Below, one piece after another: positions 12,808 through 30,500 of a DNA stretch of 64,000 nucleotides (positions are counted from its first letter, which is position 1; every line of letters starts with the position of its first letter). This DNA is from Streptosporangiaceae bacterium (GTDB lineage Bacteria; Actinomycetota; Actinomycetes; Streptosporangiales; Streptosporangiaceae). The notes under the pieces were generated by a model. It worked only from the letters and a program-made list of their open reading frames with translations. It did not search any database and was not told the origin of the DNA. The position numbers and the translations under genes are program-made. The stretch lies in assembly GCA_036501145.1 (NCBI GenBank), contig DASYAV010000155.1, forward strand, positions 6,164 to 70,163. Direction: 5' to 3'.

Positions 12808-14730
12808 ATGGCGGCTGAGACGGCGGCTGGCACGCCTGCTGACGGGGCCGCGATGCTGCCCGGCGAACTCCGGGCCAGGGTACAGGCGTGGATCGGCGAC
12901 GATCCCGACCCGGACGACCGGGATGAGCTGCGCAAGCTGCTGGCCGATGGCGGGGAGGCGGCCGTGGCGGAACTGGCGGGCCGGTTCGGTGGCAGGCTGG
13001 AGTTCGGCACCGCGGGGCTGCGCGGCGCGGTCGCGGCCGGCCCTGCCAGGATGAACCGGGCGGTCGTCCGCGGCGCCACGGCGGCGCTGGCCGGCTGGCT
13101 GGCCGCCCGGGTGCCCGGCGCCGCGCAGGCCGGGGTGGTCATCGGCGCCGACGCCAGGCACCGCTCCGCCGAGTTCGCCGACGAGGCGGCCCAAGTGCTC
13201 GCCGGGGCGGGGTTCCGTGTGCACCTGCTGCCCCGCCCGGGCCCGACGCCGCTGCTGGCGTTCTCGGTGCGGCGGCTGCCCGCGGCGGCCGGCGTCATGA
13301 TCACCGCGAGCCACAACCCGGCCGCGGACAACGGCTACAAGCTGTACCTCGCCGACGGGGCCCAGATCATCCCGCCTGCCGACGCCGAGATCGAGGCCGC
13401 GATCCGCGCCCTCGGCCCGCTGGCCGCCGTGCCGGTGGCGCCGCTGGACAGCCCGCTGATCACCAGGCACGGCGCCGAGCCGGCCGGCGCCTACCTGGAC
13501 GCGGTGACCGCCCTGCCAGGTACCAGCCCGCCCGGAGCCCCGGTACCCGGAGCGGAGGTATCCGGAGCTGAGGCCCCGGCGGGAACGGCCGCGGGGGTGC
13601 CACTGCGGGTCGTCTACACCGCCATGCACGGGGTGGCCGGCCCGCTCATGCTGGCGGCCATCGGCCGGGCGGGCTTCCCCGCCCCGCACGTGGTCGCCGC
13701 CCAGGCCGACCCGGACCCGGACTTCCGCACGGTGGCCTTCCCGAACCCGGAAGAGCCCGGCGCCCTCGACCTTGCGCTCGTCGAGGCGCGGCGGCTCGGC
13801 GCGGACCTGGTACTGGCCAGCGACCCGGACGGGGACCGGCTCGCGGTCGCGGTTCCGGATCCGGCGGCCAGCGGGGGCTGGCGGCGGCTGACCGGTGACC
13901 AGCTGGGCGCTCTGCTCGGCGGTTACCTGCTGAGTCAGACCGGTGGGCGGCCGGGTGCGGCGGAGCGCCTGGTGGCGACCACGGTTGTGTCCTCGACCCT
14001 GCTGTCGAAGATCGCCGCGGCGGCCGGCGCCCGGTACGCCGAGACCCTCACCGGCTTCAAGTGGATCGTCCGGGCTGGTGAGGGGGGCAGGCCAAGCGAA
14101 AGCGTCAGGCCAAGCGAGAGCGTCGGGGCAGGCGGGCGGGTGCCGGGCAGCCGGTTCCTGTTCGGCTACGAGGAGGCGCTCGGCTACGCCGTGGGCGAGG
14201 CGGTGCGGGACAAGGACGGCATCGGCGCGGCGCTGGCCGTGCTCGGCCTGGCCACCCGCGAGCGGCAGGCCGGGCGGTCCCTGCTGGACGCCTACGACGG
14301 CCTGGAGACCGCGCACGGCGTGCACCTGACCGCACAGCTGACCCTGCGCACCGCGGCGCCGGGCCAGATCATGGCGGCCCTGCGCGCCACTCCCCCTGAC
14401 CGCTTCGGCGGCGAGGCTGTGCTGCGCGCCGAGGACCTGGCCAAGGCCGGCCGGGAACACCGCGCCGAGGACCTGGCCCGGGCCGGCCGCGAGCACCCTG
14501 CCGGGGATGCGATTGGCGGCGCCGGTGGCCTGCCGCCCGCCGATGTGCTGGTATACCGGCTGGCCGGGGCCAGGGTCGTGGTGCGGCCGAGCGGCACCGA
14601 GCCCAAGCTGAAGGTGTACTTCGAGGTGGTCGAGCCGGCCGGGGCCGGACTGGCGCGGGCCCGCGCGGACGCCGCGACCAGGCTGGACGCGCTGCGAGCC
14701 GCGGCCGGCCAGCTGGTTCAGCCGGGCTAG
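12808..14730 (+). CDS. phospho-sugar mutase (phosphopentomutase/phosphomannomutase family)
   Basis: ATG 12808, one nt after the punA stop. Catalytic-serine loop MITASHNPAADNGYK. Carries two in-frame tandem duplications. Confidence 0.85.
   Translation: MAAETAAGTPADGAAMLPGELRARVQAWIGDDPDPDDRDELRKLLADGGEAAVAELAGRFGGRLEFGTAGLRGAVAAGPARMNRAVVRGATAALAGWLAARVPGAAQAGVVIGADARHRSAEFADEAAQVLAGAGFRVHLLPRPGPTPLLAFSVRRLPAAAGVMITASHNPAADNGYKLYLADGAQIIPPADAEIEAAIRALGPLAAVPVAPLDSPLITRHGAEPAGAYLDAVTALPGTSPPGAPVPGAEVSGAEAPAGTAAGVPLRVVYTAMHGVAGPLMLAAIGRAGFPAPHVVAAQADPDPDFRTVAFPNPEEPGALDLALVEARRLGADLVLASDPDGDRLAVAVPDPAASGGWRRLTGDQLGALLGGYLLSQTGGRPGAAERLVATTVVSSTLLSKIAAAAGARYAETLTGFKWIVRAGEGGRPSESVRPSESVGAGGRVPGSRFLFGYEEALGYAVGEAVRDKDGIGAALAVLGLATRERQAGRSLLDAYDGLETAHGVHLTAQLTLRTAAPGQIMAALRATPPDRFGGEAVLRAEDLAKAGREHRAEDLARAGREHPAGDAIGGAGGLPPADVLVYRLAGARVVVRPSGTEPKLKVYFEVVEPAGAGLARARADAATRLDALRAAAGQLVQPG
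14088..14123 (+). repeat. 18-bp tandem duplication in the mutase gene (RPSESV x2)
   Basis: caggccaagcgaaagcgt / caggccaagcgagagcgt. Confidence 0.9.
14425..14496 (+). repeat. 36-bp tandem duplication in the mutase gene (RAEDLAKAGREH / RAEDLARAGREH)
   Basis: Two adjacent 36-nt units differing at a few positions. Confidence 0.9.
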
Positions 14731-14810
14731 CGGCGGTCACCGCCGGGACGGTCACTGCCAGGACGGTCACCGCCGGACTGGGGCGCCCGCCCGGCAGCGG
14801 CTCAGCCGGG

Positions 14811-15863
14811 CTACCCGGTCACCCCGAGTTCGGCGGCCAGGCCGGCCAGTTCGCGGAGCGTGCCGTCGGCCACGGCCAGCGGGGCGGCCGGGTCCAGGTC
14901 CGCGGGCAGGGTGCGCGCGGCTCCGGGCAGCCTGCCGCCCCGGCCGGTCACCCCGGCGGCCAGCCGGTCCAGCCGGGCCTGTGCGTCGCCGGGCTGCGGG
15001 CCGAACCGGGCCGGATCCAGGGTGATCAGCAGGTGCCCGATGCCCTGCGGCTGGGCCGTGGTGTCGGCGGCGAACATGTCGGCTACCTCGGTGGACAGCC
15101 GGGGGCCGGCCAGCCCGGCGGCGAGCGCCTCCACGATCAGCGCCAGCGCGAAGCCTTTCGCCCCGCCGAGCGGGCTGAGCATCCCGGCCAGGGCGGCGTG
15201 CGCATCGGTGGTGGGCTCTCCCTGCGCGTCCAGCGCCCAGCCGGCCGGCAACGGCTCATCCCGCTGGGCCAGTGCCGCGATCTTGCCACGGGCCACGGTG
15301 CTTGTCGCCATGTCGACGATGACCGGGTGCCCGGCCGCCGGGATGCCGGCCGCGAGCGGCGACGTGGACAGCATCGGCTGGCTGGTCCCCCACGGCGGCA
15401 TCACCGCGGGCCCGTTGGAGAAGACCAGGGTCAGGCATCCGGCTTCCAGGCCGGGCAGGGTGTAGACGCCGAGGGCGCCGCAGTGCCCGGAGTTCGCCAC
15501 GCTCACCGCCGCGATGCCGTACTGCGCGCAGCGTGCGGCGGCCTCCTGGCCCGCCTGCCACAGCTGCCAGTGCCCGAGGCCGCCGCCGCCGTCCAGGGCG
15601 AGCAGCGGGCCGGTGTCGGTGACGGTGACCAGCCCGGCCTGCGGCGGATAGCCGCCCGCCAGCATCCGGCGCAGGTAGTAGGGCAGCCGCAGCAGCCCGT
15701 GGCTGCCCACCCCCCACACGTCGGCCAGCACGATGCACAGCGCGGAGGTCTCAGCCCGGTCCGCGGCCAGCCCGGCCGCCGCCAGCAGCCGGGCCGCCAG
15801 CCGCCGGGCGCCAGCAACGGTAAGCCCGTCACCGGTGGGGAGGCCGACAGTTTCCCCGGTCAC
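14811..15863 (-). CDS. Ldh_2-family (malate/L-lactate/sulfolactate dehydrogenase type 2) oxidoreductase
   Basis: 350 aa. GSHGLLRLPYY, VANSGHCGALG, STSPLAAGIP, DMATSTVARGKI and GGAKGFALA motifs typical of PF02615-type enzymes. Confidence 0.8.
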   Translation of the reverse strand: MTGETVGLPTGDGLTVAGARRLAARLLAAAGLAADRAETSALCIVLADVWGVGSHGLLRLPYYLRRMLAGGYPPQAGLVTVTDTGPLLALDGGGGLGHWQLWQAGQEAAARCAQYGIAAVSVANSGHCGALGVYTLPGLEAGCLTLVFSNGPAVMPPWGTSQPMLSTSPLAAGIPAAGHPVIVDMATSTVARGKIAALAQRDEPLPAGWALDAQGEPTTDAHAALAGMLSPLGGAKGFALALIVEALAAGLAGPRLSTEVADMFAADTTAQPQGIGHLLITLDPARFGPQPGDAQARLDRLAAGVTGRGGRLPGAARTLPADLDPAAPLAVADGTLRELAGLAAELGVTG

Positions 15864-16894
15864 GGCGCTGCCACCGGGACGGTGACCGCGTTGGACGGGC
15901 TGCCCCCGTCAAGCACGGCCGCGATGTCGGCCGCGAGCACCTGCAGGATCCGCTGCTGGCTCTGCTCGGTCATCCCGGCCACGTGCGGGGTCAGGACCAC
16001 GTTGTCCAGCCGTTCCAGGACCCCGGGGTGCGGCGGCTCCTGCTCCCGCACGTCCAGGCCGGCCCCGCCGAGGTGGCCGGACTCCAGCACCGCGGCCAGG
16101 GCTTCCTCGTCCACGACCGATCCCCGGCCGACGTTGATGAACAGCGCTCCCCGGCGCATCCGGGCCAGCAGGTCCGCGTCCACGAAGTGGCGGGTGCCCG
16201 CGGTGGCAGGCAGGTGGCAGGACAGGATCTCGGCCTCGCCGAGGACTCCGTCGAGTGACGCGAGCCGGATCCCGGCCGCGGCCAGTTCCGTGTCGCGGCC
16301 GCCGGCGAAGGGATCATAGGCGAGCACCCGAGCGCCGACCGCCGTGGCCAGCCGGCCGCAGGCCAGCCCGGTCGCGCCCGCGCCGAGCAGCCCCCAGACG
16401 GCGCCGCTGAGCTCCCGGCCCGGCACCCGGTCCCAGCCGCCGGACCGGCACTCGCGGTCCAGCGGCACCAGCCGCCGGGCCAGCGCCAGGGCCAGGCCAA
16501 GTGTGTGCTCGGCCACGCTGACCGCGTTGGCGCCCAGCGGCGCGATCACCGCCACTCCCCTGGCCTGCGCCGCGGCGACGTCGATGTTGTCCAGCCCGAC
16601 CCCGGCGCGGGCGACGACCCGCAGCCGCGGGCATGCCTCCAGCAGCCCCCGGTCGACCTGGCTGCGGTTGCGCACCACCAGGGCACGGGCCCGGCTGGCG
16701 GCCGCGGCCAGCCCGGCCGGGCTCTGCCACGCGGAAGGCTCCCGCAGCACCGACCGGCTCCGGGCCAGTTCCTCCAGCGGCGGGCCCCAGATGTCTTCGG
16801 TGATGGCCACGTCCACCGGTCCCGGCGGCCCCGCTGCCTGCCCGGCTCGCTGTGCCGGCCCTGGCTCGCGCTGGCCGGGCTCGGCCTGCATCAA
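15860..16894 (-). CDS. D-isomer-specific 2-hydroxyacid dehydrogenase (PGDH/glycerate dehydrogenase-like)
   Basis: GLLGAGATGLACG NAD fold, INVGRGSVVDEEAL, LDV...EPP...TPHVAG. 4-nt overlaps at both ends. Confidence 0.85.
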   Translation of the reverse strand: MMQAEPGQREPGPAQRAGQAAGPPGPVDVAITEDIWGPPLEELARSRSVLREPSAWQSPAGLAAAASRARALVVRNRSQVDRGLLEACPRLRVVARAGVGLDNIDVAAAQARGVAVIAPLGANAVSVAEHTLGLALALARRLVPLDRECRSGGWDRVPGRELSGAVWGLLGAGATGLACGRLATAVGARVLAYDPFAGGRDTELAAAGIRLASLDGVLGEAEILSCHLPATAGTRHFVDADLLARMRRGALFINVGRGSVVDEEALAAVLESGHLGGAGLDVREQEPPHPGVLERLDNVVLTPHVAGMTEQSQQRILQVLAADIAAVLDGGSPSNAVTVPVAAP

Positions 16895-18051
16895 GCGCTC
16901 TGGTACAGCCGGGTGAGCACGAACTCCCGGTGCCCGATGGCCTCGGCGCAGGTGATCCTGCCGTTGACGGTGCGGTCGCAGAGGTCCATCAGCCGGTCGC
17001 CCGCCTCGGCCAGGTCATACTCGCGGCTCAGCAGGCCGGAGCAGTCGAGATCGATGTGCTCGGCCATGGTCTGGGCGGTCAGCGGGTTCGCCGACAGTTT
17101 GATGACCGGTTCGAGCGGGTGCCCGATCACGTTGCCCTGGCCGGTCGGGAACAGGTGCAGCACGGCACCGGCCGAGGCCATCAGCGTGATGCACTCGGCC
17201 GCGGCCGATGAGGTGTCCATGAAGTACAGGCCGGGCCCGGAGGCCGGCACCTCGGCGGCTTCCAGCGCTCCGATCACCGGCTTGCTGCCGGTCTTGGCGA
17301 TGTTGCCCATCGCCTTCTCCTCGATGGTGGACAGGCCGCCGCGGATGTTGCCCTGGGTGGGCTGCGAACCGAGCATGTCCGCCCCGGCCCGGGCGATCAT
17401 CTCCATGTAGCTGTCGTAGATGCCCTGGAACTTCTGCCGGATCTCGTCGCTGGCGCACCGCTGCGCGATCAGGTGCTCCCCGCCGGTCAGTTCGCTCGTC
17501 TCGCCGAACAGCACGGTGCCGCCGGCCTCTACCCAGCGGTCCACCGCCTGCGAGGTGGTGGGGCACGAGCCGAGCCCGCTGGTGGTGTCGGACTCCCCGC
17601 ACTTGATCGACAGCATGATCTCGCTGCGGTCCACGGGCTCCCGGGTCCGCTCGGAGTCGTCCTGCAGGAACTGCGCCGCCACCCGGGCCGCGCGCTCGAT
17701 CGTGCGCAGGTCGCCGTGCCGCTCGATGGAGAAGCCCACCACCCGCTGGCCGGTCTTGGCGATGTCGTTCACCAGCCGGTCGGTCCAGTTCGGCTCGATG
17801 CCGATGACGATGGCCGAGGCGACGTTCGGGTTGGCCGCGTTGCCCGCCAGCGTGCGGAAGGTGAGGTCGAGGTCGGCGCCGAACTGGAGCCGGCCGTAGG
17901 CGTGCGGGAGCGCCAGCGTGCCCGGGACCAGCCTGGCGACGGCCTCGGCGGCGGCGTTCGACAGGTCGTCGACCGGCAGGATGACGGTGTGGTTCCTGAT
18001 CCCGACCGCGCCGTTCTCCCGGCGGAACCCGGTCAGCGTGCGCTGGTTCAC
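16891..18051 (-). CDS. UxaA/GarD-family dehydratase, large subunit (SuyB-like architecture)
   Basis: 386 aa. N-terminus GFRRENGAVGIRNHTVILP. Altronate-dehydratase C-terminal domain features. Confidence 0.85.
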   Translation of the reverse strand: MNQRTLTGFRRENGAVGIRNHTVILPVDDLSNAAAEAVARLVPGTLALPHAYGRLQFGADLDLTFRTLAGNAANPNVASAIVIGIEPNWTDRLVNDIAKTGQRVVGFSIERHGDLRTIERAARVAAQFLQDDSERTREPVDRSEIMLSIKCGESDTTSGLGSCPTTSQAVDRWVEAGGTVLFGETSELTGGEHLIAQRCASDEIRQKFQGIYDSYMEMIARAGADMLGSQPTQGNIRGGLSTIEEKAMGNIAKTGSKPVIGALEAAEVPASGPGLYFMDTSSAAAECITLMASAGAVLHLFPTGQGNVIGHPLEPVIKLSANPLTAQTMAEHIDLDCSGLLSREYDLAEAGDRLMDLCDRTVNGRITCAEAIGHREFVLTRLYQSA

Positions 18052-18332
18052 AGGCGGGCGCTCCTCACGTTGTGGACGTGCACGTGCTCGCCGGTGGCGA
18101 TGTCCTTGCTGGCGATGGCCACCCGCTGCCCGTACTCGATGACGTCCTGCCCCGCGGCGATGTCGGTGAGGGCCAGCTTGTGGCCGAGCGGCACCGGCTC
18201 GGTCAGCCGCACGCTGAGCGTGTCCGTGCCGCTCAGGTAGCTGCCCTGTACCGGTCCTGGGTCGAGGTCCCGCACCGCGACACCGACAAGGTCACCCTTC
18301 CGGTGGGCCAGGAACCCGGGCGCTTCGGGCAT
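18048..18332 (-). CDS. SAF-domain small subunit of UxaA-family dehydratase (SuyA-like architecture)
   Basis: 94 aa, AGGAGAA RBS. Ends GEHVHVHNVRSARL as UxaA N-terminal domains do. 4-nt overlap with the large subunit. Confidence 0.8.
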   Translation of the reverse strand: MPEAPGFLAHRKGDLVGVAVRDLDPGPVQGSYLSGTDTLSVRLTEPVPLGHKLALTDIAAGQDVIEYGQRVAIASKDIATGEHVHVHNVRSARL

Positions 18333-18370
18333 CAGCTTCTCCTGTTTTGTGGGTAGAGCGTCCTGTGGAT

Positions 18371-18386
18371 AGAGGTCTTACCACTG
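18371..18386. promoter_or_regulatory. predicted FadR/GntR-type operator, site 1 (AGAGGTCTTACCACTG), upstream of the SAF/UxaA operon
   Basis: 39 nt upstream of start 18332. Its reverse complement CAGTGGTAAGACCTCT matches the 16-bp consensus. A TATCCT -10-like hexamer sits 6 nt upstream in gene sense. Confidence 0.6.
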
Positions 18387-18497
18387 TGCTGGAGGATAGC
18401 GCAGGCCAGTTCGGCCCGGCAAGGCGGGGCCGGCTCCCCGGGTGGCCGTAATCCGGCAGGTCTGGTGCCCGCGCGCCGCGCGGCTGCCGCGGCCTTC

Positions 18498-19664
18498 TCA
18501 CCACTCGGCCAGCCGCCCGTCACCGAGCCGCCAGACGGGGTCGGGCAGCTCCCAGCCGCTCGCGGCGCCGCGGACAGCCTCCGCGTCGATGCCGATCCCG
18601 AGACCGGGGCCGGCGGGCCGCCGCAGGCTGCCGCCCACCGGGGTGAGCGGGTCCGGGTCGGTCAGGTAGTCGAACATCTCCGCGGCGGGCAGGCCGGCAT
18701 ACCCCCGGTTGTAGTGCAGGCCGAGGCTTTGCTCCTGGATGACCACGTTGCCCGCGCAGCAGCCCACCTGCAGCGAGGCGGCCAGCGCGATCGGGCCGTT
18801 GGGGCAGTGCGGCGCGACGGCCACGTCATAAGCCTCGGCCATCCGGCAGAGCTTCTCCAGGCCGAACAGCCCGGTGAAGCAGACATCGGGCTGGATGATA
18901 TCGACGGCACGGCGCTCGAGCAGGCGGGCGAAGCTCTCCCCGGTGAGCAGGCGCTCGCCGGTGGCCAGCGGCGTGGCCCCGGCCACCCTGGCCAGTTCGG
19001 GGAGCAGATCCTCCTGCCCGGGGGGAACCGGCTCTTCCACCCAGAGCAGGCGGAACTGCTCGAGCTCGCGCAGCAGCGCCTTGGCCATGGCGCGGTGCAC
19101 CCGGCCGTGGAAGTCCAGCGCGACATCGACGGTGGTGCCGAACGCGTCCCGCACCGCGCCGACCCTGGCCACCACGGCGTCGATCTTCGCCGGCCGGTCG
19201 AGCAGGTCCAGCTCCGCGGTCGCGTTCATCTTCACCGCGGAGTAGCCCTGCTCGGTGCGGGCTTTGACCTGGCTCACCACGTCATCCGGCCGGTCCCCGG
19301 CCACCCAGGCGTAGACCCGCACGGTGTCCCGCACGGCGCCGCCGAGGAACTCGTGCGCGGCCAGGCCATGCCGCCTGCCCTTGATGTCCCACAGCGCCTG
19401 CTCGATCGCGGCCGCGGCGGTCGCGAGCACGGGGCCGTCGCGGAAGAACCCGCCGCGCCGCATCCGCTGCCACAGATCCTCGATGCGGCTGGCGTCCTGG
19501 CCAATCACGTTGCGCGCCAGGTCGGCCACCGCGCCCTCGACCGCCGCCGCCCGCTTCGGCACGATGGCCTCGCCCCAGCCGGTCAGCCCGTCGTCGGTCC
19601 GCACCTCGGCGAAAATCCACCGCGGCGGCACCCGGTGCGTCGTCACCGACGCGATGGTGCCCAT
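18498..19664 (-). CDS. enolase-superfamily sugar-acid dehydratase, D-galactonate dehydratase (DgoD)-like
   Basis: 388 aa. N-terminus VTTHRVPPRWIFAEVRTDDGLTGWGEA...IEQALWDIKG matches my recollection of the DgoD N-terminus (from memory; I ran no alignment). Confidence 0.85.
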   Translation of the reverse strand: MGTIASVTTHRVPPRWIFAEVRTDDGLTGWGEAIVPKRAAAVEGAVADLARNVIGQDASRIEDLWQRMRRGGFFRDGPVLATAAAAIEQALWDIKGRRHGLAAHEFLGGAVRDTVRVYAWVAGDRPDDVVSQVKARTEQGYSAVKMNATAELDLLDRPAKIDAVVARVGAVRDAFGTTVDVALDFHGRVHRAMAKALLRELEQFRLLWVEEPVPPGQEDLLPELARVAGATPLATGERLLTGESFARLLERRAVDIIQPDVCFTGLFGLEKLCRMAEAYDVAVAPHCPNGPIALAASLQVGCCAGNVVIQEQSLGLHYNRGYAGLPAAEMFDYLTDPDPLTPVGGSLRRPAGPGLGIGIDAEAVRGAASGWELPDPVWRLGDGRLAEW

Positions 19665-20755
19665 CAGTGGAGCGCGCGGCCGGAGTCCGGGTCGAACACG
19701 TGCAGGCGGGCCGGATCCAGGGTGAATGCGATCTTCTCGCCGACGCCGACCTTGTGCTCCCGGGCCATCTTGGCCGTCACGATCGCGTCGCCCACCTTGA
19801 CGATGACGTGCTGCTCGGAGCCGAGCGGCTCGATCACCTCGACGCTCCCCTCGACCGCCGCCGCGCCTGACGGGGCCGCGGCGGACAGCTTCAGGTGCTC
19901 GGGCCGGATCCCGGCGACGGCCCGCTTGGCGCCGGCAGGCAGCGCCGCGGCGACCTCCCGCGGCAGCCGGAGGCTGACGCCGGTGCCGCGCAGTTCGGCC
20001 GCGGAGTCCGCCGGGACCACCTCGCAGTCGAGGAATCCCATCGGGGGAGTGCCGATGAAGCTGGCGACGAACCTGTTGACGGGCTTGTCGTAGAGCTCAT
20101 CGGGCGTCCCGACCTGCTGCAGCACACCGTCGTGCACCACGGCGATGCGGTCGCCCATCGTCATCGCCTCCACCTGGTCGTGTGTCACGTACACGGCGGT
20201 CGCGGTCACGCTGCGGTGCACCCGGAGGATCTCGGCCCGCATCTGGATCCTGAGGTGGGCGTCCAGGTTGGACAGCGGCTCGTCCAGCAGGAAAACCGCG
20301 GGGTCACGGACGATCGCCCGGCCGAGTGCGACCCGCTGCCGCTGGCCACCGGAAAGCTGACGCGGCTTGCGGTCGAGCAGGTGCTCGATGCCGAGCAGGC
20401 CGGCCGTGTGCCGCACCTGCTGGTCGATGCCGGCCTTCGGCAGGCCGCGCTTGCGCAGCCCGAACGCCATGTTCTGGTAGACGGTCATGTGCGGGTACAG
20501 GCCGTAGTTCTGGAACACCATGGCGATGTCACGCTCGCCCACGTCGACGTCGCTGACCCGCCGGTCACCGAAGTAGATCTCGCCGTCGGTGAGCATCTCC
20601 AGCCCGGCGATGAGGCGCAGCAGGGTCGTCTTGCCCGAGCCGGACGGCCCGACGAGGACGAGGAACTCGTGGTCGGCGATCTCCAGGTCGGTCTCGCGGA
20701 GCGCGTAGGTGTCGCCGTAGCGCTTCGTCACGCCCTTCAGCGCGATGCTGGCCAT
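19664..20755 (-). CDS. sugar ABC transporter ATP-binding protein (MalK/MsiK/UgpC type)
   Basis: ATG 20755 (MASIALKGVTKRYG). Walker A GPSGSGKTT, LSGGQRQRVALGRA. TGATG junction with the SDR gene. Confidence 0.9.
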   Translation of the reverse strand: MASIALKGVTKRYGDTYALRETDLEIADHEFLVLVGPSGSGKTTLLRLIAGLEMLTDGEIYFGDRRVSDVDVGERDIAMVFQNYGLYPHMTVYQNMAFGLRKRGLPKAGIDQQVRHTAGLLGIEHLLDRKPRQLSGGQRQRVALGRAIVRDPAVFLLDEPLSNLDAHLRIQMRAEILRVHRSVTATAVYVTHDQVEAMTMGDRIAVVHDGVLQQVGTPDELYDKPVNRFVASFIGTPPMGFLDCEVVPADSAAELRGTGVSLRLPREVAAALPAGAKRAVAGIRPEHLKLSAAAPSGAAAVEGSVEVIEPLGSEQHVIVKVGDAIVTAKMAREHKVGVGEKIAFTLDPARLHVFDPDSGRALH

Positions 20756-21615
20756 CAGCGTGCCTCCCCGGCCGGTTCGTGCCATAGCTGGCCGCCCACC
20801 CGGGCGGCGAGCGGATCGGGAAACCGGCTGAGTGCCCGGCCGCCGTCCACCCGCAGCACCGCGCCGGTGATGAACGAGGCCTGCGGTGCGGCGAGGAACG
20901 CGACCGCCTCGGCAACCTCAGCCGGTGAGCCGGTCCGGCGCAGCAGCGTGGCCGGCGGCCTGTCCTCGTCCTGGCCGGCGCCGGGCTCCTCGGCGAAGCC
21001 CTTGGTGTCGATGACCCCGGGGGCCACGGCGTTGACCCGCACTCCCAGCGGGGACAGTTCGCCGGCCATCGCCAAGGTCAGGCTGGTCAGCCCGCCCTTG
21101 CTGGCTACGTAGGGCACATGCGTGGCCAGCGGCAGGTCCGCCTGGATGCTGGTGATATTGACGATCGAGCCGGTGCCGCGCGGCACCATGTCCCGGGCGG
21201 CGTCCCGGCCGAGCAGCGCGGCCGCGGCGATGTTGGTGTTCAGCACCGCGGCCAGGTCGGTGGCCGACATGTCCAGGAAGGACACCCGGGGGCCGAGGTA
21301 GGCCGCGTTGTTGACCAGCACGTCGACCCGTCCCCAGCGGCGCAGCACCCGGCCCACCAGCCCCGCGCACTGGCCAAGGTCGGACAGATCGGCCTGCTCG
21401 AAGCAGGCCTGCCCGCCGCGGGCGGATATCCCGTCCGCCGCTGCCTGGCCGGTCACCGGGTCGATGTCCACCAGTGCGACCCGCGCCCGGCCGGCCGCGA
21501 GGCGCTCGGCGACAGCGCGGCCGATGCCGCGCCCCGCGCCGGTGACCAGGGCGACCTGCCCGCTGAAGGGGGCCGTGTCCGCGGCTGCGGCCGGCTCCTG
21601 CGCGACGCCGGGCAC
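20755..21615 (-). CDS. SDR-family oxidoreductase (candidate sugar 1-dehydrogenase)
   Basis: 3' part of fused track ORF 20755..22398. GTG 21615. TGAGRGIG cofactor motif and YVASKGG catalytic YxxxK. Confidence 0.85.
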   Translation of the reverse strand: MPGVAQEPAAAADTAPFSGQVALVTGAGRGIGRAVAERLAAGRARVALVDIDPVTGQAAADGISARGGQACFEQADLSDLGQCAGLVGRVLRRWGRVDVLVNNAAYLGPRVSFLDMSATDLAAVLNTNIAAAALLGRDAARDMVPRGTGSIVNITSIQADLPLATHVPYVASKGGLTSLTLAMAGELSPLGVRVNAVAPGVIDTKGFAEEPGAGQDEDRPPATLLRRTGSPAEVAEAVAFLAAPQASFITGAVLRVDGGRALSRFPDPLAARVGGQLWHEPAGEAR

Positions 21616-21617
21616 CG

Positions 21618-22520
21618 CTAGCTCCCCGCCAGCGCGCCGGCCGTCAGCCCGCGCACCATCGATCGCTGGACCAGGAAAAACGCCACGATCAGCGGCAAGC
21701 TGGTGATGAGCGAGGCGGCCATCATGCCGCCCCAGTCGGTCTTGAAGGTGCCGCTGAAGCTCTGCAGCAGGCCAGGCGGCAGGGTCTGCCGGTTGTTGCT
21801 GCTGGTGAGGGTCAGCGGGTACAGCAGGTTGTTCCAGGTTTCCATGAAGACGAAGACTCCCGTCGTCACCAGGCCCGGGATCGACAGCGGCACGACGACC
21901 CGCACCAGGATGCCCAGCCTGGAGTAGCCGTCCACCCGTGCGGCCTCCTCGATCTCGCGGGGCACGCCGTCGAAGAAGCCCTTCATCAGCCACGCCCCGA
22001 ACGGGATCGCGAACGTGGTGTAGCCGATGACCAGGCCAAGGTAGGTATTGAGCAGGTGCACGTGCAGCAGCAGCAGGTACAGCGGGCCGATGATGACGAC
22101 GAGCGGGATCATCTGGGTGGCCAGCACCGCGACGCTCGAGATCCCGTTCAGCCGGTAGCCCCCGCGGGAGAAGCTGTACCCGGCCAGCGTGGAGATCGCC
22201 ACCACGACCACTGCCGTGGCGACCGACGTGACGATGCTGTTGATCAGGTAGTTGCCGAACGGCAGCGAGCTGCCGAAAAGCTCCCTGAAGTTGGCGCCGG
22301 TGATCGTATGCGGCCACACGGTCGGGCTCAGGTTGGTGGCTTCCTGCGGGGTCTTCAGCGCGGTGGACAGCATCCAGTAGATCGGCCACAGCGTCCACAC
22401 CGCGAACAACCCGACGATCACGATCACCACCGAGCGGCGCACCAGCCGCCGCCTGGCCCGGCGCGGGCCGGTGGCCGTGGTGGGCTCCGGGCCCGCCGTC
22501 GTGACTGTGCTCACACTCAT
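21618..22520 (-). CDS. carbohydrate ABC transporter permease (MalG-like)
   Basis: ATG 22520 (MSVSTV) in an ATGA overlap with the upstream permease stop. Six-TM CUT1 permease pattern. Confidence 0.85.
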   Translation of the reverse strand: MSVSTVTTAGPEPTTATGPRRARRRLVRRSVVIVIVGLFAVWTLWPIYWMLSTALKTPQEATNLSPTVWPHTITGANFRELFGSSLPFGNYLINSIVTSVATAVVVVAISTLAGYSFSRGGYRLNGISSVAVLATQMIPLVVIIGPLYLLLLHVHLLNTYLGLVIGYTTFAIPFGAWLMKGFFDGVPREIEEAARVDGYSRLGILVRVVVPLSIPGLVTTGVFVFMETWNNLLYPLTLTSSNNRQTLPPGLLQSFSGTFKTDWGGMMAASLITSLPLIVAFFLVQRSMVRGLTAGALAGS

Positions 22521-23416
22521 GCGGTTCTCCTCCGCAGCACCCGGATAAATAGCGATGCCACGATAAGCAGCAGCACCAGCCACACCACGCCGATCGCCGA
22601 GGCGTAGCCCAGCTTGAAGCTGGTGAAGGCGAGTTCGTAGACGTAGACCACCAGCGTGGTCGTCCCGTTCGCCGGGCCGCCGCCGGTCATCGCCCAGATC
22701 AGCGGGAAGTCGTTGAAATTCTGGATGATCATCAGCAGCGCGCCGACCAGGGCGGCGTTGCGCAGGTAGGGCAGCTTGATCCGGACGATCATGGACCAGG
22801 CGCCGGCCCGGTCGATCCTGGCCGCCTCGATCACCTCGTCGGGCACGGCGCCAAGCGCCGCCGTGAACAGCAGCAGGAAGAAGGGCGCCCTGGTCCAGAC
22901 GTTCGCCATGATGACCGCGGCCATCGCCCACGGCGGCGAGGTGAGCCACGGGATGGGCGTGTGGATGATCCCGATCTTCTCCAGCAGCACATTGGTGATG
23001 CCACCGGGGTTGGTGAACATGAACTGGAACAGGAAGGCGACCACGATGACCGGCATCGCCCACGGGGTGAGCAGCACCGCGCGGATGAACCGCCACGGGC
23101 CGCGCAGCCGCTCCAGCGCGAGGGCGAGCACCAGCCCCACCAGCAGACCGGCCACCACGGCAATGCCGGTGTAGATCGCGGTATTCTGCAGCGCTTGCCA
23201 GAACACCGGGTCGTGGACGAGCAGGCGGTAGTTGGCCGCGCCCACGAAGTCGTTCACCGGGAACTGCAGGTTGTAGTTGGACAGCGAGATGATGACCGCG
23301 TCGACGATCGGGTAGCCGACGACGACCGCCAGGATGATCAGGGCAGGCGCGGTCATCCAGTCAAACCACCGGTTGCCCCGGCGTCGCCGGGGCAACCGGC
23401 TGCGAGCCATCCGCAC
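22517..23416 (-). CDS. carbohydrate ABC transporter permease (MalF-like)
   Basis: 299 aa, multi-TM, with the EAA-loop region EAARIDRAGAW. Confidence 0.85.
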   Translation of the reverse strand: MRMARSRLPRRRRGNRWFDWMTAPALIILAVVVGYPIVDAVIISLSNYNLQFPVNDFVGAANYRLLVHDPVFWQALQNTAIYTGIAVVAGLLVGLVLALALERLRGPWRFIRAVLLTPWAMPVIVVAFLFQFMFTNPGGITNVLLEKIGIIHTPIPWLTSPPWAMAAVIMANVWTRAPFFLLLFTAALGAVPDEVIEAARIDRAGAWSMIVRIKLPYLRNAALVGALLMIIQNFNDFPLIWAMTGGGPANGTTTLVVYVYELAFTSFKLGYASAIGVVWLVLLLIVASLFIRVLRRRTA

Positions 23417-23424
23417 CAGCTACC

Positions 23425-24798
23425 TCATCCGCCCAGGTCGGTCTGGAGCTTCGACTGGAGGCCCGAGGCGATGGAGGCGACCGGTGCCGAGGTCGTCATC
23501 GCCTGCTGGATAGCCGCCATCACGTCGAGGTAGACGCTGCTGTAGTACGGGCCCCAGCCCGGGGTGATCTCGGTCGGGATGATGTTCTTGATGAACGACT
23601 GCGAAATCGGGTTGTCCAGCGCGCTGGCGACGGCACCGACCGGATGGGCCAGCGGCGGCACCGAGCCCTCGTACTTGATCGTGTAGTTGAGGACCGCGTC
23701 CTGGTTCGTGACCAGGAAGTTCATGAACTGCCACGCGGCACTCTTGTTGGACGCGTTCTTGAACATCACCAGCTGGTGGCCGCTGGGTGTGGTGACGGAC
23801 TGCTGGCCCGCCGTGGCGGTCGGCAGCTTCGCCACACCCCAGGTGCTGTAGAACTTGCTGTCGCTCATATGGTTGGTGGCCTGCACGACGCCCTTGACGT
23901 ACGGGCCGTCCACGGTGAACGCCACCTGATTGGACGCGGCCGGCTGCCGGAAGTAGCCGCCCTTCTGCCCCTCGGGGGTGTACCCGTCCTTGTCGATCGT
24001 GTGCATGAAGGTCAGGTAGCTCCGCATCGCCGCAGTGTCCGCGGTCGCCGTCTTGCCGGTGAAGGGCACGCCGCCGAAGTTCTTCATGATCGGCCAGTTC
24101 TGGTCCAGGCCGTACTCACGGCTGGTGCTGTCGGTCCCGAAGTCGATGACCTTCGGCTCCTTGGCGTGGATGACCTTGCAGTCGGCCAGCAGCTGGGTCC
24201 AGGTGGTGGGCGGGACCGGCTTCAGCCCGGCCGCCTTCATGACCGTCTTGTTGTACCAGAGCCCGAACGGCCCGGTGGTCCAGGGGATCGCCACCTTCTG
24301 CCCGTTGATCGTGCCCGCGCTCAGCTCGTTCGGGATGATGGACGACTGCCACGAGCTTGTCTCGTAGCTGTTCAGCGGCTGCAGCGTACCGGTCTCGGCG
24401 ACGTCGTGGGTGTACTGGCCCTGCAGTTCGGCGACGTCGGGCGTGTTGCCCGACTTGGCCTCCAGCACGAGCTGATGGTCGATGTCGGTGTAGGAGATCG
24501 GCTCGCTCTTGACGGTGATGCCCGGGTGGAGCGCCTCGAACTTCTTGATCATCGCCGCGATCCCGGGTGCGGTGTTGGATTCAGCCGCGGCCCAGTTCCC
24601 AAACGTGATCACATTCTTGCTGCCGCTGCTGCCGCCGCCACCCGAGCTGCACGCGGCCGCGGCCAGGAGCAGCGCCGCCCCGGCCGCGCCGACCGCGAGT
24701 GGACGCCAGCGCGCCTCGCGGCCTCGAGGACGCCCCGGTGCCTGGGTGGTGCGCCCGTGCCTGCGATGCCGTTCCAGCTGCTGACCAGGATTCCACAT
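23425..24798 (-). CDS. extracellular solute-binding lipoprotein (CUT1 family) for oligosaccharide
   Basis: ATG 24798 preceded by GAGGGAA. Lipobox LLLAAAACSSGG. Family-1 SBP body. Confidence 0.85.
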   Translation of the reverse strand: MWNPGQQLERHRRHGRTTQAPGRPRGREARWRPLAVGAAGAALLLAAAACSSGGGGSSGSKNVITFGNWAAAESNTAPGIAAMIKKFEALHPGITVKSEPISYTDIDHQLVLEAKSGNTPDVAELQGQYTHDVAETGTLQPLNSYETSSWQSSIIPNELSAGTINGQKVAIPWTTGPFGLWYNKTVMKAAGLKPVPPTTWTQLLADCKVIHAKEPKVIDFGTDSTSREYGLDQNWPIMKNFGGVPFTGKTATADTAAMRSYLTFMHTIDKDGYTPEGQKGGYFRQPAASNQVAFTVDGPYVKGVVQATNHMSDSKFYSTWGVAKLPTATAGQQSVTTPSGHQLVMFKNASNKSAAWQFMNFLVTNQDAVLNYTIKYEGSVPPLAHPVGAVASALDNPISQSFIKNIIPTEITPGWGPYYSSVYLDVMAAIQQAMTTSAPVASIASGLQSKLQTDLGG

Positions 24799-24830
24799 TG
24801 CCGTTCCCTCGCCGTCTAGCGTGTCGACCA

Positions 24831-24846
24831 CAGTGGTCTGACCTCT
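24831..24846. promoter_or_regulatory. predicted operator, site 2 (CAGTGGTCTGACCTCT), upstream of the SBP/ABC operon
   Basis: 33 nt upstream of ATG 24798. Downstream of TTGACA (rc of 24888-24893), an 18-nt spacer and CACAGT. Confidence 0.65.
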
Positions 24847-24912: not shown

Positions 24913-27810
24913 CTACCCGGCCCCGATAGCGAAAAAGTGCATGCCCGTGACACGGCCCGATCCCGCGGACCCTCCCGACGGGAGGGTGACGGCCTGGACC
25001 GTCTTGCCCGCCGTCAGCGGGGCCGAAGCGTAGAAAACATAGACCGTGTGGTCATACTGCCCCCTGGGCCGGCCGCCGATCCCCTGTGAGTTCTCATACG
25101 GGAGCGTGGCGGCAACCTGGTCCGCCGATCCCGGCGGGGCGTTGAAGAACCCGTAGAGCGTCAGGGTGTAGCTGCTGGTGGACCCGTCGGTGTAATACAC
25201 CGTGCCGCTGCCCGTCGCGGTGGGCTCGCTGCTGCTCGCGCCCAGGAACCCCAGCGTTGTCCCGCTGCCGGAGACCTGCACCGTCTGGCCCTGCGCGAGC
25301 ACGTTGTCGGGCTGCCCGGCGGGCACGTCCGGCCAGGTAAAGCTGACGCCGCCGTCGGTGACGCTGGCCCCGGGGGCGAGCCCGGCCGCGGCGAGGGCCT
25401 GCCCGGAGTAGCTGTTGCCCACACCATCGAAATTGGCCGAGTCGACGTCGGAGTCGTCGCTGATACCCGCGTTGCCGAACGCCTGCTGCATCGTGGTGGG
25501 CACGAGGAGGCTGGCGGTGGCCTCATCCACCGTGAGCCCGCCGGCGCTCGCCGACGCGGTGAGCTGGTAGGAGCCGGGCGGCGCCTGGCCCGGTGGCAGC
25601 ACCTGGTAGCTCCTGGTCACGCTCTGGCCGGGCCGCAGCACGTAGCGCCAGGAACCCGCCGGTGACACCGTCCAGCCATCCGGGCCGGTCAGCGAGAGAT
25701 CCCCGGCGACGGTCCCGTGGCTCTGGTTGGACAGCGTAGCGGTGGCTGCCGCCGGGCTGCCGGGGACCGCGATGGGCCCCGCCTGCAGCGCCAGGCTGGG
25801 CCGCGACGTCACCTCGTGCCCGGTGAGCTGCAGCAGCGTGACCGAATGCGCCGGGAAGGTGTAGCTGAACGCCCCGGCGCCGGTGGCGGCCGAGCTGCTG
25901 GCCAGGGTAACTGCGTCCGGCTGGTCAGGCGAGTTGTAGGACAGGGAACTGGCGGCGTTCAGGGTCCGGGCCGTGACCAGGCCGCTGTGCTGGTAGGCGA
26001 CGGGGTTGACCGCCGCGGTCACCGCGCCGGACGGGCTGCGGTTGATGCCCAGCAGGTACTCGTGCTGCGCGGTACGGACGGCCAGCACGCTGAGCGTGGG
26101 CACGGACTGGCCGCCGACCGTGGTCAGCACCGGGTTGCCCGGTGTCTGCACCGGTAGCACGCTGCCGCCGGCCAGCGGCGCGAACAGGCCGTACACCTGG
26201 CCGGTCGCCTCCAGGACGGAGCCAGGCCCCGGTGTTCCTATCGCACCCGTCGTGGCGAACGGCGCCGCGCCGGGCAGCCCGGCACAGCACTGCGAGGCGG
26301 GCGGGATCTCCGCGGTCAGCAGCTGCCGGTCGGCGACCGGGATGCCCATGCTGATCCACTCGGCGAGCTGGCTGGCATTCAGCAGCGCCGCGTCAAGGGA
26401 ATCGTGGTAGTAGGGATAACCGTCCGGGTTCGAGCTCAGCAGCTGGCCGTACTCGGTCAGCGCCAGCGGAACCTGCCGCTTGGCGTACTGGCTGATCGTG
26501 GCCTCCAGCTGCGCGGCGGCCTGGGCCTCGTCCGCCGGGGCGGCCATGATCTGCTCCTGGTAGGAGCCGATCGGCACGTCGTTGGCCACCGTGCCCGTCG
26601 ACACATAGGGGTGGTACTGCAGGCAGTCGTAGGGAAGCGTGCTGCCCATCGACTCGATGAAGTCGTCCGAGGTGTCCGCCGAGCAGATCCTGATGCCCGG
26701 GTTCGCTGCCTTCATGGCCCGGTAGAACCCGAGGAATCCATCGTGCGGGCCGGAGACGTAGCTGACGGTGATCTGAGCGCCCTGTGGCGGGATCGCGCCG
26801 TGTGTCCCGTCGCCGAAGGTTATCTCCCCCGACGCGGGGTCCAGCGTGTACACTTGGTCGCCGGGCCCGGCGCCGGCCAGGCTGGCGACCTGAGTCCAGG
26901 CCGAGCCGGCCACGCTGACGGTGGCCGTCCCCGGCGCCACCGGCGGGTACTGGGCGTAGAAGGTCTCCCCCGGCGCGCCCGCGGACTGCGCGGCGGCCGG
27001 TGTCCGGTCGGCGTACTGGACGGCCGGCTGGCTGCTGAAGCTGGTGGAGCCGCCGTAGATGTACAGGCAGGTGGCGACGTTCTGGCACGCTCCCGGTGGC
27101 CCACCCACCGTGACGGGGGTCCCGGACCTCCAGTACAGGCTGAGGTCTTCCTCGTTGCCGACCTCCCAGTAGGGCACGTTGTACGGGGCGCGGTGACCGT
27201 TGCTCACCCGCATGTCGGCCCACTTGCTCGTGCCGGGCTTGCCGGTCATGTAGGAGACGAAGTCCGCCGCTTCCTGGGCGGTGCCGGTGGCGAAGTCGGC
27301 CGTCACGACGCCCTGCGCGCCGGTCGCGTCGAGCAGCTGGCCGAACTCGTCAGGCCCGACCGTGCCGGAGCTGGGACCCTGGGCCGGCCCGAACGCGTTC
27401 GGTGTGCGCTGCGACTGGGGTCCTACGGCGCGCATCCAGTGGAAGACCTCCGCGGTGATGCCCCCCGGATAGCGCAGCGAGCCGGGACCCACCCCGTCCT
27501 TCAGCTGATGCAGGAATCCCGGGTAGAACCCGCCGGCCTGCCCGTCGTAACTTCCCATCCCGCCGAAAGGCCACAGGTAGTCGTGGCCGAGGACGGCCTG
27601 GCCGACCGTGCCCTGCGTGGAGCCCGCGCCGACCACGATCGAGGTGGCCGGCTGCTGGCTGCCCGCCGTCTCCAGCGCGGCGCCGGGGGCGGCGCGGAAC
27701 GCCGCCGTGCCGGCCACCGCGGCCAGCAGCACGGCACAGGTGATGAGCGGGTAGGCACGGCCGCGGCGGTCGCGGGAACCGTACCGCGCGATTCCACCCG
27801 ATCGGGGCAT
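24913..27810 (-). CDS. secreted clan GH-A glycoside hydrolase (GH51 arabinofuranosidase-like TIM barrel) + NEW3-like domain + shared C-terminal module
   Basis: ATG 27810 with GAGGAG RBS; the track start 27894 lies inside the predicted -35. Signal peptide. PGGITAEVFHW...PYWEVGNEEDL catalytic-acid region. Family assignment is tentative. Confidence 0.7.
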   Translation of the reverse strand: MPRSGGIARYGSRDRRGRAYPLITCAVLLAAVAGTAAFRAAPGAALETAGSQQPATSIVVGAGSTQGTVGQAVLGHDYLWPFGGMGSYDGQAGGFYPGFLHQLKDGVGPGSLRYPGGITAEVFHWMRAVGPQSQRTPNAFGPAQGPSSGTVGPDEFGQLLDATGAQGVVTADFATGTAQEAADFVSYMTGKPGTSKWADMRVSNGHRAPYNVPYWEVGNEEDLSLYWRSGTPVTVGGPPGACQNVATCLYIYGGSTSFSSQPAVQYADRTPAAAQSAGAPGETFYAQYPPVAPGTATVSVAGSAWTQVASLAGAGPGDQVYTLDPASGEITFGDGTHGAIPPQGAQITVSYVSGPHDGFLGFYRAMKAANPGIRICSADTSDDFIESMGSTLPYDCLQYHPYVSTGTVANDVPIGSYQEQIMAAPADEAQAAAQLEATISQYAKRQVPLALTEYGQLLSSNPDGYPYYHDSLDAALLNASQLAEWISMGIPVADRQLLTAEIPPASQCCAGLPGAAPFATTGAIGTPGPGSVLEATGQVYGLFAPLAGGSVLPVQTPGNPVLTTVGGQSVPTLSVLAVRTAQHEYLLGINRSPSGAVTAAVNPVAYQHSGLVTARTLNAASSLSYNSPDQPDAVTLASSSAATGAGAFSYTFPAHSVTLLQLTGHEVTSRPSLALQAGPIAVPGSPAAATATLSNQSHGTVAGDLSLTGPDGWTVSPAGSWRYVLRPGQSVTRSYQVLPPGQAPPGSYQLTASASAGGLTVDEATASLLVPTTMQQAFGNAGISDDSDVDSANFDGVGNSYSGQALAAAGLAPGASVTDGGVSFTWPDVPAGQPDNVLAQGQTVQVSGSGTTLGFLGASSSEPTATGSGTVYYTDGSTSSYTLTLYGFFNAPPGSADQVAATLPYENSQGIGGRPRGQYDHTVYVFYASAPLTAGKTVQAVTLPSGGSAGSGRVTGMHFFAIGAG

Positions 27811-27834
27811 GCCGTCTCCTCTCGCCCGTGTGTC

Positions 27835-27850
27835 CGGTGGTCTGACCTCT
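27835..27850. promoter_or_regulatory. predicted operator, site 3 (CGGTGGTCTGACCTCT), upstream of the GH51-like hydrolase
   Basis: 25 nt upstream of ATG 27810. Downstream of TTGACA (rc of 27889-27894), an 18-nt spacer and AAGAGT. Confidence 0.65.
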
Positions 27851-27941
27851 GAACTCTTGGGAACACTCTTCCTGGCTCGGCGGCGGCCTGTCAATCACCT
27901 ACCGGAAGAAGACGGGTAGGCACTGCGATCGCAAGCAGGTA

Positions 27942-30364: not shown

Positions 30365-30370
30365 AGCCCT

Positions 30371-30404: not shown

Positions 30405-30500
30405 TTTCTGTGAACCTGTCCTACCCATTTCTGCTGGGTCATTCGCACTTTCCGGCCCGGCGCCGGCATTCTGCCGGGTCGTGGCCTGGCCGACCGAGAG

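Follow-up and report, generated by a model that had tools for sequence, protein, structure and literature searches.

A predicted suyAB-slcC-comC sulfolactate module beside a candidate sulfosugar operon under FadR-type control in a Streptosporangiaceae genome

Four consecutive minus-strand genes in a stretch of Streptosporangiaceae DNA (the window: 64,000 nucleotides of contig DASYAV010000155.1, assembly GCA_036501145.1) can be assigned with good confidence to a predicted sulfolactate mineralisation module consisting of suyA, suyB, an slcC-type gene and a comC-type gene. This module would be the last stage of one FadR-controlled regulon, whose first stage would be a kinase-free Entner–Doudoroff (ED) route for a sulfo-sugar; the neighbouring operon seems likely to encode that route. 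The most likely substrate is 6-deoxy-6-sulfo-D-galactose (sulfofucose) or a close 6-sulfohexose. Gene content and order, clade membership, the residue pattern, the synteny and the shared operator are shown from the sequence, and we infer the substrates and activities of all enzymes of the locus. The suyAB/slcC/comC module itself is of an already known kind, of which the window holds an actinobacterial copy. What is new here is the actinobacterial host phylum for a route of the SfcF type, the DHDPS-type aldolase, the conserved regulator with its operator, and the co-regulated secreted glycosidases.

Sulfosugars, like sulfolactate, rank among the major currencies of the sulfur cycle; our comparisons suggest that soil Actinobacteria (Streptosporangiales-like metagenome-assembled genomes (MAGs), a Jatrophihabitantaceae MAG and an Arthrobacter plasmid) carry the same tandem logic. 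Leads arising from the locus include a conserved FadR-type regulator and operator, a candidate sulfolactaldehyde dehydrogenase, a DHDPS-type replacement for the aldolase, and candidates for the first sugar-releasing glycosidases. The public annotations "UxaA family hydrolase", "galactarate dehydratase" and "galactonate dehydratase" are also corrected for these genes.

Stewart et al. (mBio 2025; PMC12421959) reported that Paracoccus wurundjeri strain Merri degrades sulfofucose to pyruvate and (S)-sulfolactaldehyde through an SDR dehydrogenase (SfcH), an SMP-30-type lactonase (SfcD), an enolase-superfamily dehydratase (SfcF) and an aldolase (SfcE). The (S)-sulfolactaldehyde was proposed to be converted to sulfolactate and, through SlcC/ComC and SuyAB, to sulfite, and complete sulfosugar breakdown to sulfite in one organism was called unusual (PMC12421959). 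The initial annotation of the window had offered two hypotheses for the module: a sulfo-ED or sulfolactate route, and the racemisation of glycerate followed by its elimination. The SuyB clade, the SlcC families, the gene order and the synteny with sfcKJIHGF favour the former.

Organisation of the four-gene module

The reading frames and their Pfam matches bear out the minus-strand operon of four genes that had been described, with a SAF subunit, a UxaA-type subunit, a D-2-hydroxyacid dehydrogenase and an Ldh_2 enzyme (Table 1). The operator that had been placed before it corresponds to the predicted 15-bp site AGAGGTCTTACCACT, one of six in the locus, which sits 39-53 nt upstream of the suyA start. 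All three junctions of the module are 4-nt stop/start overlaps, in keeping with the translational coupling claimed for it. At the suyB/slcC junction, however, this claim does not stand as firmly, because the true start of slcC is uncertain. The junction reads TTGATG, and a start at the ATG (16891, 1-nt overlap) is as possible as one at TTG 16894. The slcC start may even sit further in, since the first ~26 residues of the product (window 16817-16894) form a low-complexity stretch rich in Pro, Gly, Ala and Gln that is missing from the homologues, which align from about residue 27. A consensus scan of positions 14600-18600 found no sigma-70-like promoter or intrinsic terminator; the base composition of the window is about 72% G+C.

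At least 10 other actinobacterial loci hold the same four genes together, in most cases with the order kept and in some with it rearranged, and owing to this recurrence the arrangement is not a matter of chance. Across the whole SuyB clade, a SAF gene lies directly upstream of the large-subunit gene. The window SuyA is 60-68% identical to its closest actinobacterial counterparts and 38% identical to the SuyA of Sinorhizobium mexicanum. No NCBIfam equivalog cutoff was reached by any of the four module proteins. The stretch recurs in soil metagenomes from several studies, and there are no RNA datasets among the sequencing runs listed as carrying it.

The large subunit belongs to the SuyB clade

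By its phylogenetic position, the large subunit is a member of the SuyB clade. Identities to proteins in plasmid records fell into two bands: an upper band of 56-80% with Rhodococcus, Cupriavidus pinatubonensis, S. mexicanum, Methylobacterium and several Paracoccus, and a lower band of at most 39% with all other UxaA-family proteins. The sulfonate clusters used for comparison were the plasmid records of Paracoccus versutus, C. pinatubonensis and S. mexicanum, to whose large subunits the window protein is 56.6% (the Paracoccus suyAB-suyZ cluster), 59.6% (the Cupriavidus hpsNO-suyAB cluster) and 59.2% identical, respectively. In the maximum-likelihood tree, the window protein falls inside a 30-row SuyB clade (Shimodaira–Hasegawa-like approximate likelihood ratio test, SH-aLRT, 100; stem 1.27) that includes the lyases of Cupriavidus, Paracoccus and Desulfovibrio. 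Outside this clade lie the split enzymes of Variovorax, Bacillus (L-fucose cluster) and E. albertii, the Haloferax paralogues, the Ralstonia GarD and a Rhizobium protein of the altronate-dehydratase family. The phylogenetic placement that the initial annotation had proposed as a check thus sets the large subunit with SuyB and apart from the UxaA/GarD enzymes.

A heteromeric L-fuconate dehydratase exists among UxaA/GarD superfamily members, and four cysteines are conserved in that superfamily but not in the sulfolactate sulfo-lyase SuyAB (Watanabe et al.; PMC6336799). The small/large split alone is therefore not diagnostic of SuyAB. When aligned with outgroups (GarD, a UxaA-family protein and an L-fucose-type split enzyme), every one of the 85 SuyB-clade rows had L/I, R and I in place of three of the four outgroup cysteines. 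In the window protein these residues are L30, R54 and I85, and C151 is kept. On the galactarate dehydratase model TIGR03248 (NCBIfam) it scored 154 bits against a cutoff of 731, and a search of the PDB matched GarD (6u7l) at E 3e-33. Actinobacterial genomes and soil metagenomes hold abundant SuyB homologues at 77-94% identity, and relatives at ~60% identity were found in Desulfovibrionales, Acidobacteria, Alphaproteobacteria and others.

As a separate observation, plasmid 3 of Variovorax sp. PBL-E5 (locus L096, 4526-9289) carries a second split UxaA pair, distantly related (39% identity) and placed outside the SuyB clade, with the same partners, a hydroxyacid dehydrogenase and an Ldh-family oxidoreductase, together with a GntR regulator and a tripartite tricarboxylate transporter (TTT) binding protein. 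This pair also lacks the three cysteines.

The two dehydrogenases

In the supplement of the sulfofucose study, the validated SlcC of Chromohalobacter salexigens belongs to PF00389+PF02826 and its ComC to PF02615, and the P. wurundjeri genes run in the order regulator, SuyA, SuyB, SlcC, ComC (PMC12421959). The window module has the same families in the same suyA-suyB-slcC-comC order. This agrees with the earlier proposals that the unit resembles SuyAB/ComC, to which the SuyB clade and the residue pattern also point, and that the two dehydrogenases could act together as a racemase. Under stereochemical nomenclature, the D configuration belongs to (S)-sulfolactate and the L configuration to (R)-sulfolactate. 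Because of this, a D-specific enzyme paired with an L-specific (Ldh_2) enzyme matches the predicted conversion.

The slcC-type protein is 40.6% identical to the product of a hydroxyacid-dehydrogenase gene ~1.2 kb from suyB in S. mexicanum, and all of its NCBIfam matches were below cutoff. Its nearest solved structures are 3-phosphoglycerate dehydrogenases, a likeness that would fit a substrate with an anionic group on C3. The Ldh_2 protein matched the L-sulfolactate dehydrogenase structure 2x06 at E 5e-35 and is 68% identical to its counterpart in Rhodococcus jostii RHA1.

A conserved regulator, operator and sulfonate context

The 15-bp near-palindrome wGwGGTnnnACCwCw occurs at six sites in the locus (18371, 24832, 27836, 27943, 30502 and 36724). 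Four of the six lie in promoter gaps, and the remaining two (27836 and 36724) are situated just within the 5' ends of the GH51-like and GH2 open reading frames (ORFs). Across the 7.6-Mb genome the strict motif is matched only 11 times, with 5 of these matches falling in this locus; of the 6 outside it in this genome-wide scan, none adjoins a homologue of TauE, an aldehyde dehydrogenase or a transporter. In all 10 actinobacterial loci examined, the motif lies 30-50 bp upstream of suyA, and it also heads TauE or sodium:solute symporter family (SSF)-TauE genes in RHA1, Pseudonocardia acaciae, Sciscionella marina, Amycolatopsis taiwanensis and Prauserella rugosa. Since the regulators beside suyA in other actinobacteria are 47-71% identical to that of the window and the operator is shared before suyA and TauE genes, the regulator, the operator, the four-gene module and a TauE-type transporter are predicted to be one conserved regulon.

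The gene neighbourhoods in relatives have a sulfonate context. R. jostii RHA1 (pRHL1) and P. acaciae carry the module with a divergent FadR-type regulator and a TauE gene, and the RHA1 locus further encodes a YeiH-type protein, together with an aldehyde dehydrogenase and a dehydrogenase of the beta-hydroxyacid type. TauE genes flank the module in A. taiwanensis, S. marina and P. rugosa, often with an SSF transporter. YeiH-type genes lie near the module in RHA1 and Prauserella, with weaker matches in loci L010, L012 and L072. Several carriers have the module and a transporter alone, without sugar genes.

A sulfatase gene stands between the FadR-type regulator and suyA in an uncultured Actinomycetota MAG (locus L006, 8250-9587), a hint that some such regulons handle sulfated substrates in addition to sulfonated ones.

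The neighbouring sugar operon

The published P. wurundjeri operon runs SfcK, J, I, H, G, F, E, D (PMC12421959), and the window operon, from the substrate-binding protein (SBP) gene to the dehydratase gene, follows the order SfcK, J, I, H, G, F of this sulfofucose ED route. The S. mexicanum ITTG R7 plasmid cluster, which the same paper lists, served as the reference for the identities; in operon order they were 42, 56, 57, 52, 59 and 60.6%. In S. mexicanum, SuyA/SuyB (59%) is encoded 8 kb from the dehydratase gene, and a 30%-identical GH2 lies nearby (locus L084, 27157-29355).

The best plasmid match of the dehydratase (64%) is in Arthrobacter sp. YA7-1 (pYA7-1a). There the genes run SBP, permeases, SDR, dehydratase, DHDPS-family protein, SMP-30, PfkB kinase, aldolase, succinate-semialdehyde-type (GabD) dehydrogenase and TauE, and the DHDPS and SMP-30 proteins of the window are 54% and 51% identical to that pair. 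This conjugative plasmid (locus L085, 10969-22194) carries a complete-looking sulfosugar ED cluster without suyAB. The dehydratase of the window is of the PF13378/PF02746 type and lies outside the classical DgoD clade. The sample of classical DgoD comprised four genes (Deinococcus, Haloferax volcanii, Paracoccus yeei and Aminobacter), and a branch with a support of 99/100 separates all four from the window, S. mexicanum and Arthrobacter dehydratases. All but the Aminobacter gene sit with genes for 2-dehydro-3-deoxygalactonokinase and KDPGal aldolase.

The GH2, GH3 and GH51-like enzymes of the window all carry the same C-terminal accessory module, and GH3 genes flank the SBP-to-dehydratase operon in loci L102 and L103. 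A major facilitator superfamily (MFS) sugar transporter gene is also present in the locus. Searching the PDB with the SBP, SDR and aldolase sequences returned no sulfosugar-specific solved relative.

Proposed pathway

In the scheme that we propose, a 6-sulfohexose would be imported by the ATP-binding cassette (ABC) importer, oxidised by the SDR enzyme, hydrolysed to the acid by the SMP-30 lactonase and dehydrated by the SfcF-type enolase-superfamily dehydratase. The DHDPS-type aldolase would then cleave the product to pyruvate and (S)-sulfolactaldehyde, from which a dehydrogenase encoded outside the locus would form (S)-sulfolactate. The SlcC-type enzyme would oxidise (S)-3-sulfolactate to 3-sulfopyruvate, the ComC-type Ldh_2 enzyme would reduce this to (R)-3-sulfolactate, and the SuyA/SuyB heteromer would eliminate sulfite from (R)-sulfolactate to yield a second pyruvate. 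Sulfite export would be provided from outside the locus. A kinase-free route fits a sulfosugar because C6 is blocked by the sulfonate.

The aldehyde dehydrogenase embedded in the suy operons of relatives is a good candidate for the missing sulfolactaldehyde dehydrogenase. It lies between suyB and slcC in the Jatrophihabitantaceae MAG (G001 contig 83; locus L106, 7436-8857) and directly after suyB in another actinobacterial MAG (locus L005, 3948-5408); the two proteins are 57-58% identical to the product of the RHA1 gene near TauE. In the genome of the window, an 87.5%-complete MAG, no close orthologue was found, and the best match is 43% identical. On a single contig, the Jatrophihabitantaceae MAG carries suyA, suyB, the aldehyde dehydrogenase, slcC, comC and FadR genes together with GH2, GH3, IlvD/EDD, SMP-30 and DHDPS genes and the SBP-to-dehydratase operon. 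Its GH2 (L106 14313-17510) is 51% identical to that of the window and lies behind an operator.

Two further loci look like a sulfoquinovose-type (IlvD/EDD) version of the tandem design. In a Streptosporangiaceae MAG (L004, 11143-14790), genes for FadR, suyA, suyB, an IlvD/EDD dehydratase, an SDR and a DHDPS-family protein were found; nearby lie genes of the comC and slcC types and one for a sulfonate-type (NMT1) binding protein. L005 (5237-8583 region) has FadR, suyA, suyB, the aldehyde dehydrogenase, IlvD/EDD, SDR and DHDPS genes. L102 and L103 carry both dehydratase types.

A broader proposal is that the regulon is an extracellular-to-cytoplasmic system for a sulfonated glycan, in which one or more of the secreted GH2, GH3 and GH51-like enzymes would release a 6-sulfohexose, such as sulfofucose, from a glycoconjugate of soil or plant origin, and the suy-embedded aldehyde dehydrogenase would represent the missing sulfolactaldehyde dehydrogenase type. 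We regard this proposal as tentative and rather doubtful, although it is possible that the three secreted enzymes are sulfoglycosidases. If true, it would supply the sulfofucosidase and point to a natural glycan of the sulfofucose type in soil. The study of the P. wurundjeri route described the sulfofucosidase as still unknown and found candidate clusters for that route in Proteobacteria only (PMC12421959). As a side observation, the sfc-like operons of the window, S. mexicanum and the Jatrophihabitantaceae MAG all come with a GH2 gene, which could encode a sulfofucosidase or simply a galactosidase.

Weighing the assignment and its alternatives

Several points weigh against a sulfosugar regulon that ends in sulfolactate cleavage. 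The module assignment draws on 57-60% identity to the lyases of Paracoccus, Cupriavidus and Desulfovibrio and on context, the activities of this actinobacterial clade being predictions. Within the module, the ComC assignment is the weakest link: the best NCBIfam match of the Ldh_2 protein, L-sulfolactate dehydrogenase NF040650, scored 166 bits against a cutoff of 500, and the protein is at most ~42% identical to proteobacterial Ldh-family proteins on plasmids. Neither a sulfolactaldehyde dehydrogenase nor a TauE or YeiH-type exporter was found in the locus. The regulon aldolase belongs to PF00701 and not to the PF03328 of the published pathway; the same swap occurs in Arthrobacter pYA7-1a and in L102 and L103. 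In addition, the S. mexicanum cluster used for comparison is itself a bioinformatic prediction, having been named as a sulfofucose candidate on that basis (PMC12421959). The initial annotation had likewise counted the missing GH31 sulfoquinovosidase, sulfite exporter and sulfolactaldehyde dehydrogenase against a sulfo-ED or sulfolactate route. These objections lose much of their force, as P. wurundjeri has no GH31 and no sulfolactaldehyde dehydrogenase was identified in it, while its TauE is encoded in another cluster (PMC12421959). Relatives of the window, moreover, have an aldehyde dehydrogenase in the suy operon and TauE in the regulon, and six TauE genes lie elsewhere in its own genome, TauE being near-ubiquitous.

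The sulfolactate module could be genuine while the sugar operon and the glycosidases serve D-galactose or L-arabinose from arabinogalactan by a non-phosphorylative, De Ley–Doudoroff-like route, the two being merely joined under one regulator. The nearest solved structure of the GH2 is the Paracoccus 32d beta-galactosidase 5ldr, and the GH51-like enzyme resembles arabinofuranosidases in its domains, so the two would suit ordinary use of galactan or arabinogalactan just as well; the dehydratase is also ~50% identical to DgoD, and the sugar operon of L102 has no suy genes within 10 kb. We nevertheless consider this explanation unlikely. The operator and regulator control suyAB with TauE in genomes that lack the sugar genes, and joint control by one regulator implies a shared metabolite. 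In G001, a single contig unites the suy operon, GH2, GH3 and the sugar operon, with these same operators in front of them. All four classical DgoD enzymes fall in a separate clade, three of them encoded with DgoK/DgoA-type genes. The nearest plasmid homologue of the dehydratase shares a cluster with GabD and TauE, its gene lying five genes upstream of them. A kinase-free route is, furthermore, what a sugar with a blocked C6 would require.

The second hypothesis of the initial annotation, in which D-glycerate would be racemised by the module via hydroxypyruvate and L-glycerate then dehydrated to pyruvate, completing an ATP-independent hexose route, gained no specific support, and we judge it very improbable. 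Its chemistry is formally analogous to sulfolactate elimination, the aldehyde dehydrogenase in the operons of relatives could in principle make glycerate from glyceraldehyde, and the activities of the actinobacterial subclade are predictions. Against this stand the position of the large subunit in the SuyB clade with its residue signature, and the TauE and YeiH-type genes in the same regulon of five or six genomes, which would have no role in glycerate use. Several carriers of the module with a transporter have no sugar genes, and the locus is syntenic with a demonstrated sulfosugar pathway. More improbable still, to the point of being barely credible, is that the SAF/UxaA pair is a generic heteromeric dehydratase of sugar acids (L-fuconate, altronate or galactarate type) that provides the sugar route with a second dehydratase. 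Heteromeric L-fuconate dehydratases do exist (PMC6336799), with the Bacillus sp. S3 fucose cluster as an example, and relatives of the pair are publicly named "galactarate dehydratase"; such enzymes, however, are at most 39% identical, lie outside the clade and keep their cysteines, and the score of the window protein on the galactarate dehydratase model was far below its cutoff. Sulfolactate mineralisation by the module, fed by a sulfosugar route, remains the explanation that we favour.

Comparison with known systems

The window shares with P. wurundjeri the suyA-suyB-slcC-comC order, the order SBP-permease-permease-SDR-ATPase-dehydratase, an SMP-30 lactonase and a GntR+FCD regulator, as well as a cluster without a recognisable sulfolactaldehyde dehydrogenase or TauE. 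It differs in its actinobacterial host, in the PF00701 aldolase as opposed to the HpcH/HpaI (PF03328) type of SfcE, in having the aldolase and lactonase in a separate operon with GH3, and in the three secreted glycosidases of its regulon. As cited in PMC12421959, C. salexigens uses SlcC and ComC of opposite stereospecificity as a racemase that feeds an (R)-specific SuyAB (Denger and Cook 2010). The window resembles this system in its four protein families, compared by family, and in the predicted logic of a racemase plus a lyase; the transporter and regulator types differ, the window having a FadR type with an ABC sugar importer.

The C. pinatubonensis cluster comprises LacI, hpsN, hpsO, an MFS transporter, a dehydrogenase, the small subunit and the large subunit, and that of P. 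versutus comprises GntR, the small subunit, the large subunit and a "putative sulfate exporter family transporter" (YeiH-type). The SuyAB enzymes of Paracoccus pantotrophus/P. versutus and Cupriavidus share with the window the subunit split and the clade, with large subunits at 56.6-59.6% identity, and Paracoccus also has a divergent GntR-family regulator. Unlike the predicted module, they are fed with (R)-sulfolactate from cysteate or dihydroxypropanesulfonate and have no SlcC/ComC pair beside the lyase; in Paracoccus, a YeiH-type exporter gene lies directly downstream.

Pseudomonas putida SQ1 has a sulfo-ED pathway (Felux et al. 2015; tabulated in PMC12421959) whose dehydratase is of the IlvD/EDD type, whose aldolase belongs to PF03328 and whose dehydrogenase is GabD-type; it excretes sulfolactate. 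According to the same table, it has in common with the window the SDR dehydrogenase, the SMP-30 lactonase and a dehydratase, together with an aldolase yielding sulfolactaldehyde. Its IlvD/EDD dehydratase is absent from the window, whereas L004 and L005 carry this type with suyAB. GarD/UxaA and the heteromeric L-fuconate dehydratase have the superfamily fold in common with the window SuyB but are 30-39% identical to it, lie outside its clade and keep the cysteines; GarD/UxaA are fused, in contrast to the split subunits of the window.

Features of the locus

Table 1. Predicted features of the locus, with positions in the window
Feature	Position	Strand	Basis or remark
comC-like Ldh_2 dehydrogenase, putative (R)-sulfolactate dehydrogenase / sulfopyruvate reductase	14811-15863	-	350 aa; PF02615, 291 bits
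slcC-like D-2-hydroxyacid dehydrogenase, putative (S)-sulfolactate dehydrogenase	15860-16894	-	344 aa; 2-Hacid_dh + 2-Hacid_dh_C (PF00389 + PF02826)
suyB, large UxaA-type subunit (predicted)	16891-18051	-	386 aa; GD_AH_second, 107 bits; GD_AH_C, 267 bits
suyA, small SAF-domain subunit of sulfolactate sulfo-lyase (predicted)	18048-18332	-	94 aa; Pfam SAF, 26 bits (cutoff 21)
FadR-type operator (predicted) before suyA	18371-18385	.	AGAGGTCTTACCACT
Upstream operon syntenic with sfcKJIHGF	18498-24831	-	Pfam and gene order
Enolase-superfamily dehydratase	18498-19664	-	Pfam
MalK-type ATPase	19664-20785	-	Pfam
SDR	20755-21615	-	Pfam
Permease	21618-22520	-	Pfam
Permease	22517-23416	-	Pfam
SBP	23425-24831	-	Pfam
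Secreted GH51-like glycosidase	24913-27894	-	Pfam; operators at 27943 (upstream gap) and 27836 (inside listed ORF)
FadR-family (GntR+FCD) regulator	27999-28841	+	Pfam
GH3 glycosidase, start uncertain	30278-34021	+	Pfam; operator at 30502
DHDPS-family aldolase (PF00701), start uncertain	~34785-35690	+	Pfam
SMP-30 lactonase	35687-36577	+	Pfam
GH2 beta-galactosidase-type glycosidase, start uncertain	36682-40197	+	Pfam; operator-like site 36724 just inside ORF

Two membrane-protein genes lie convergent with GH2 at the edge of the locus. One, considered as a possible exporter, encodes a 295-aa protein resembling drug/metabolite transporters (DMT-like), without a Pfam match (40183-41070, minus strand); none of the operator-like sites found lies near it or the adjacent MFS gene. 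The latter, next to the DMT-like gene, encodes an MFS transporter (41080-42303, minus strand).

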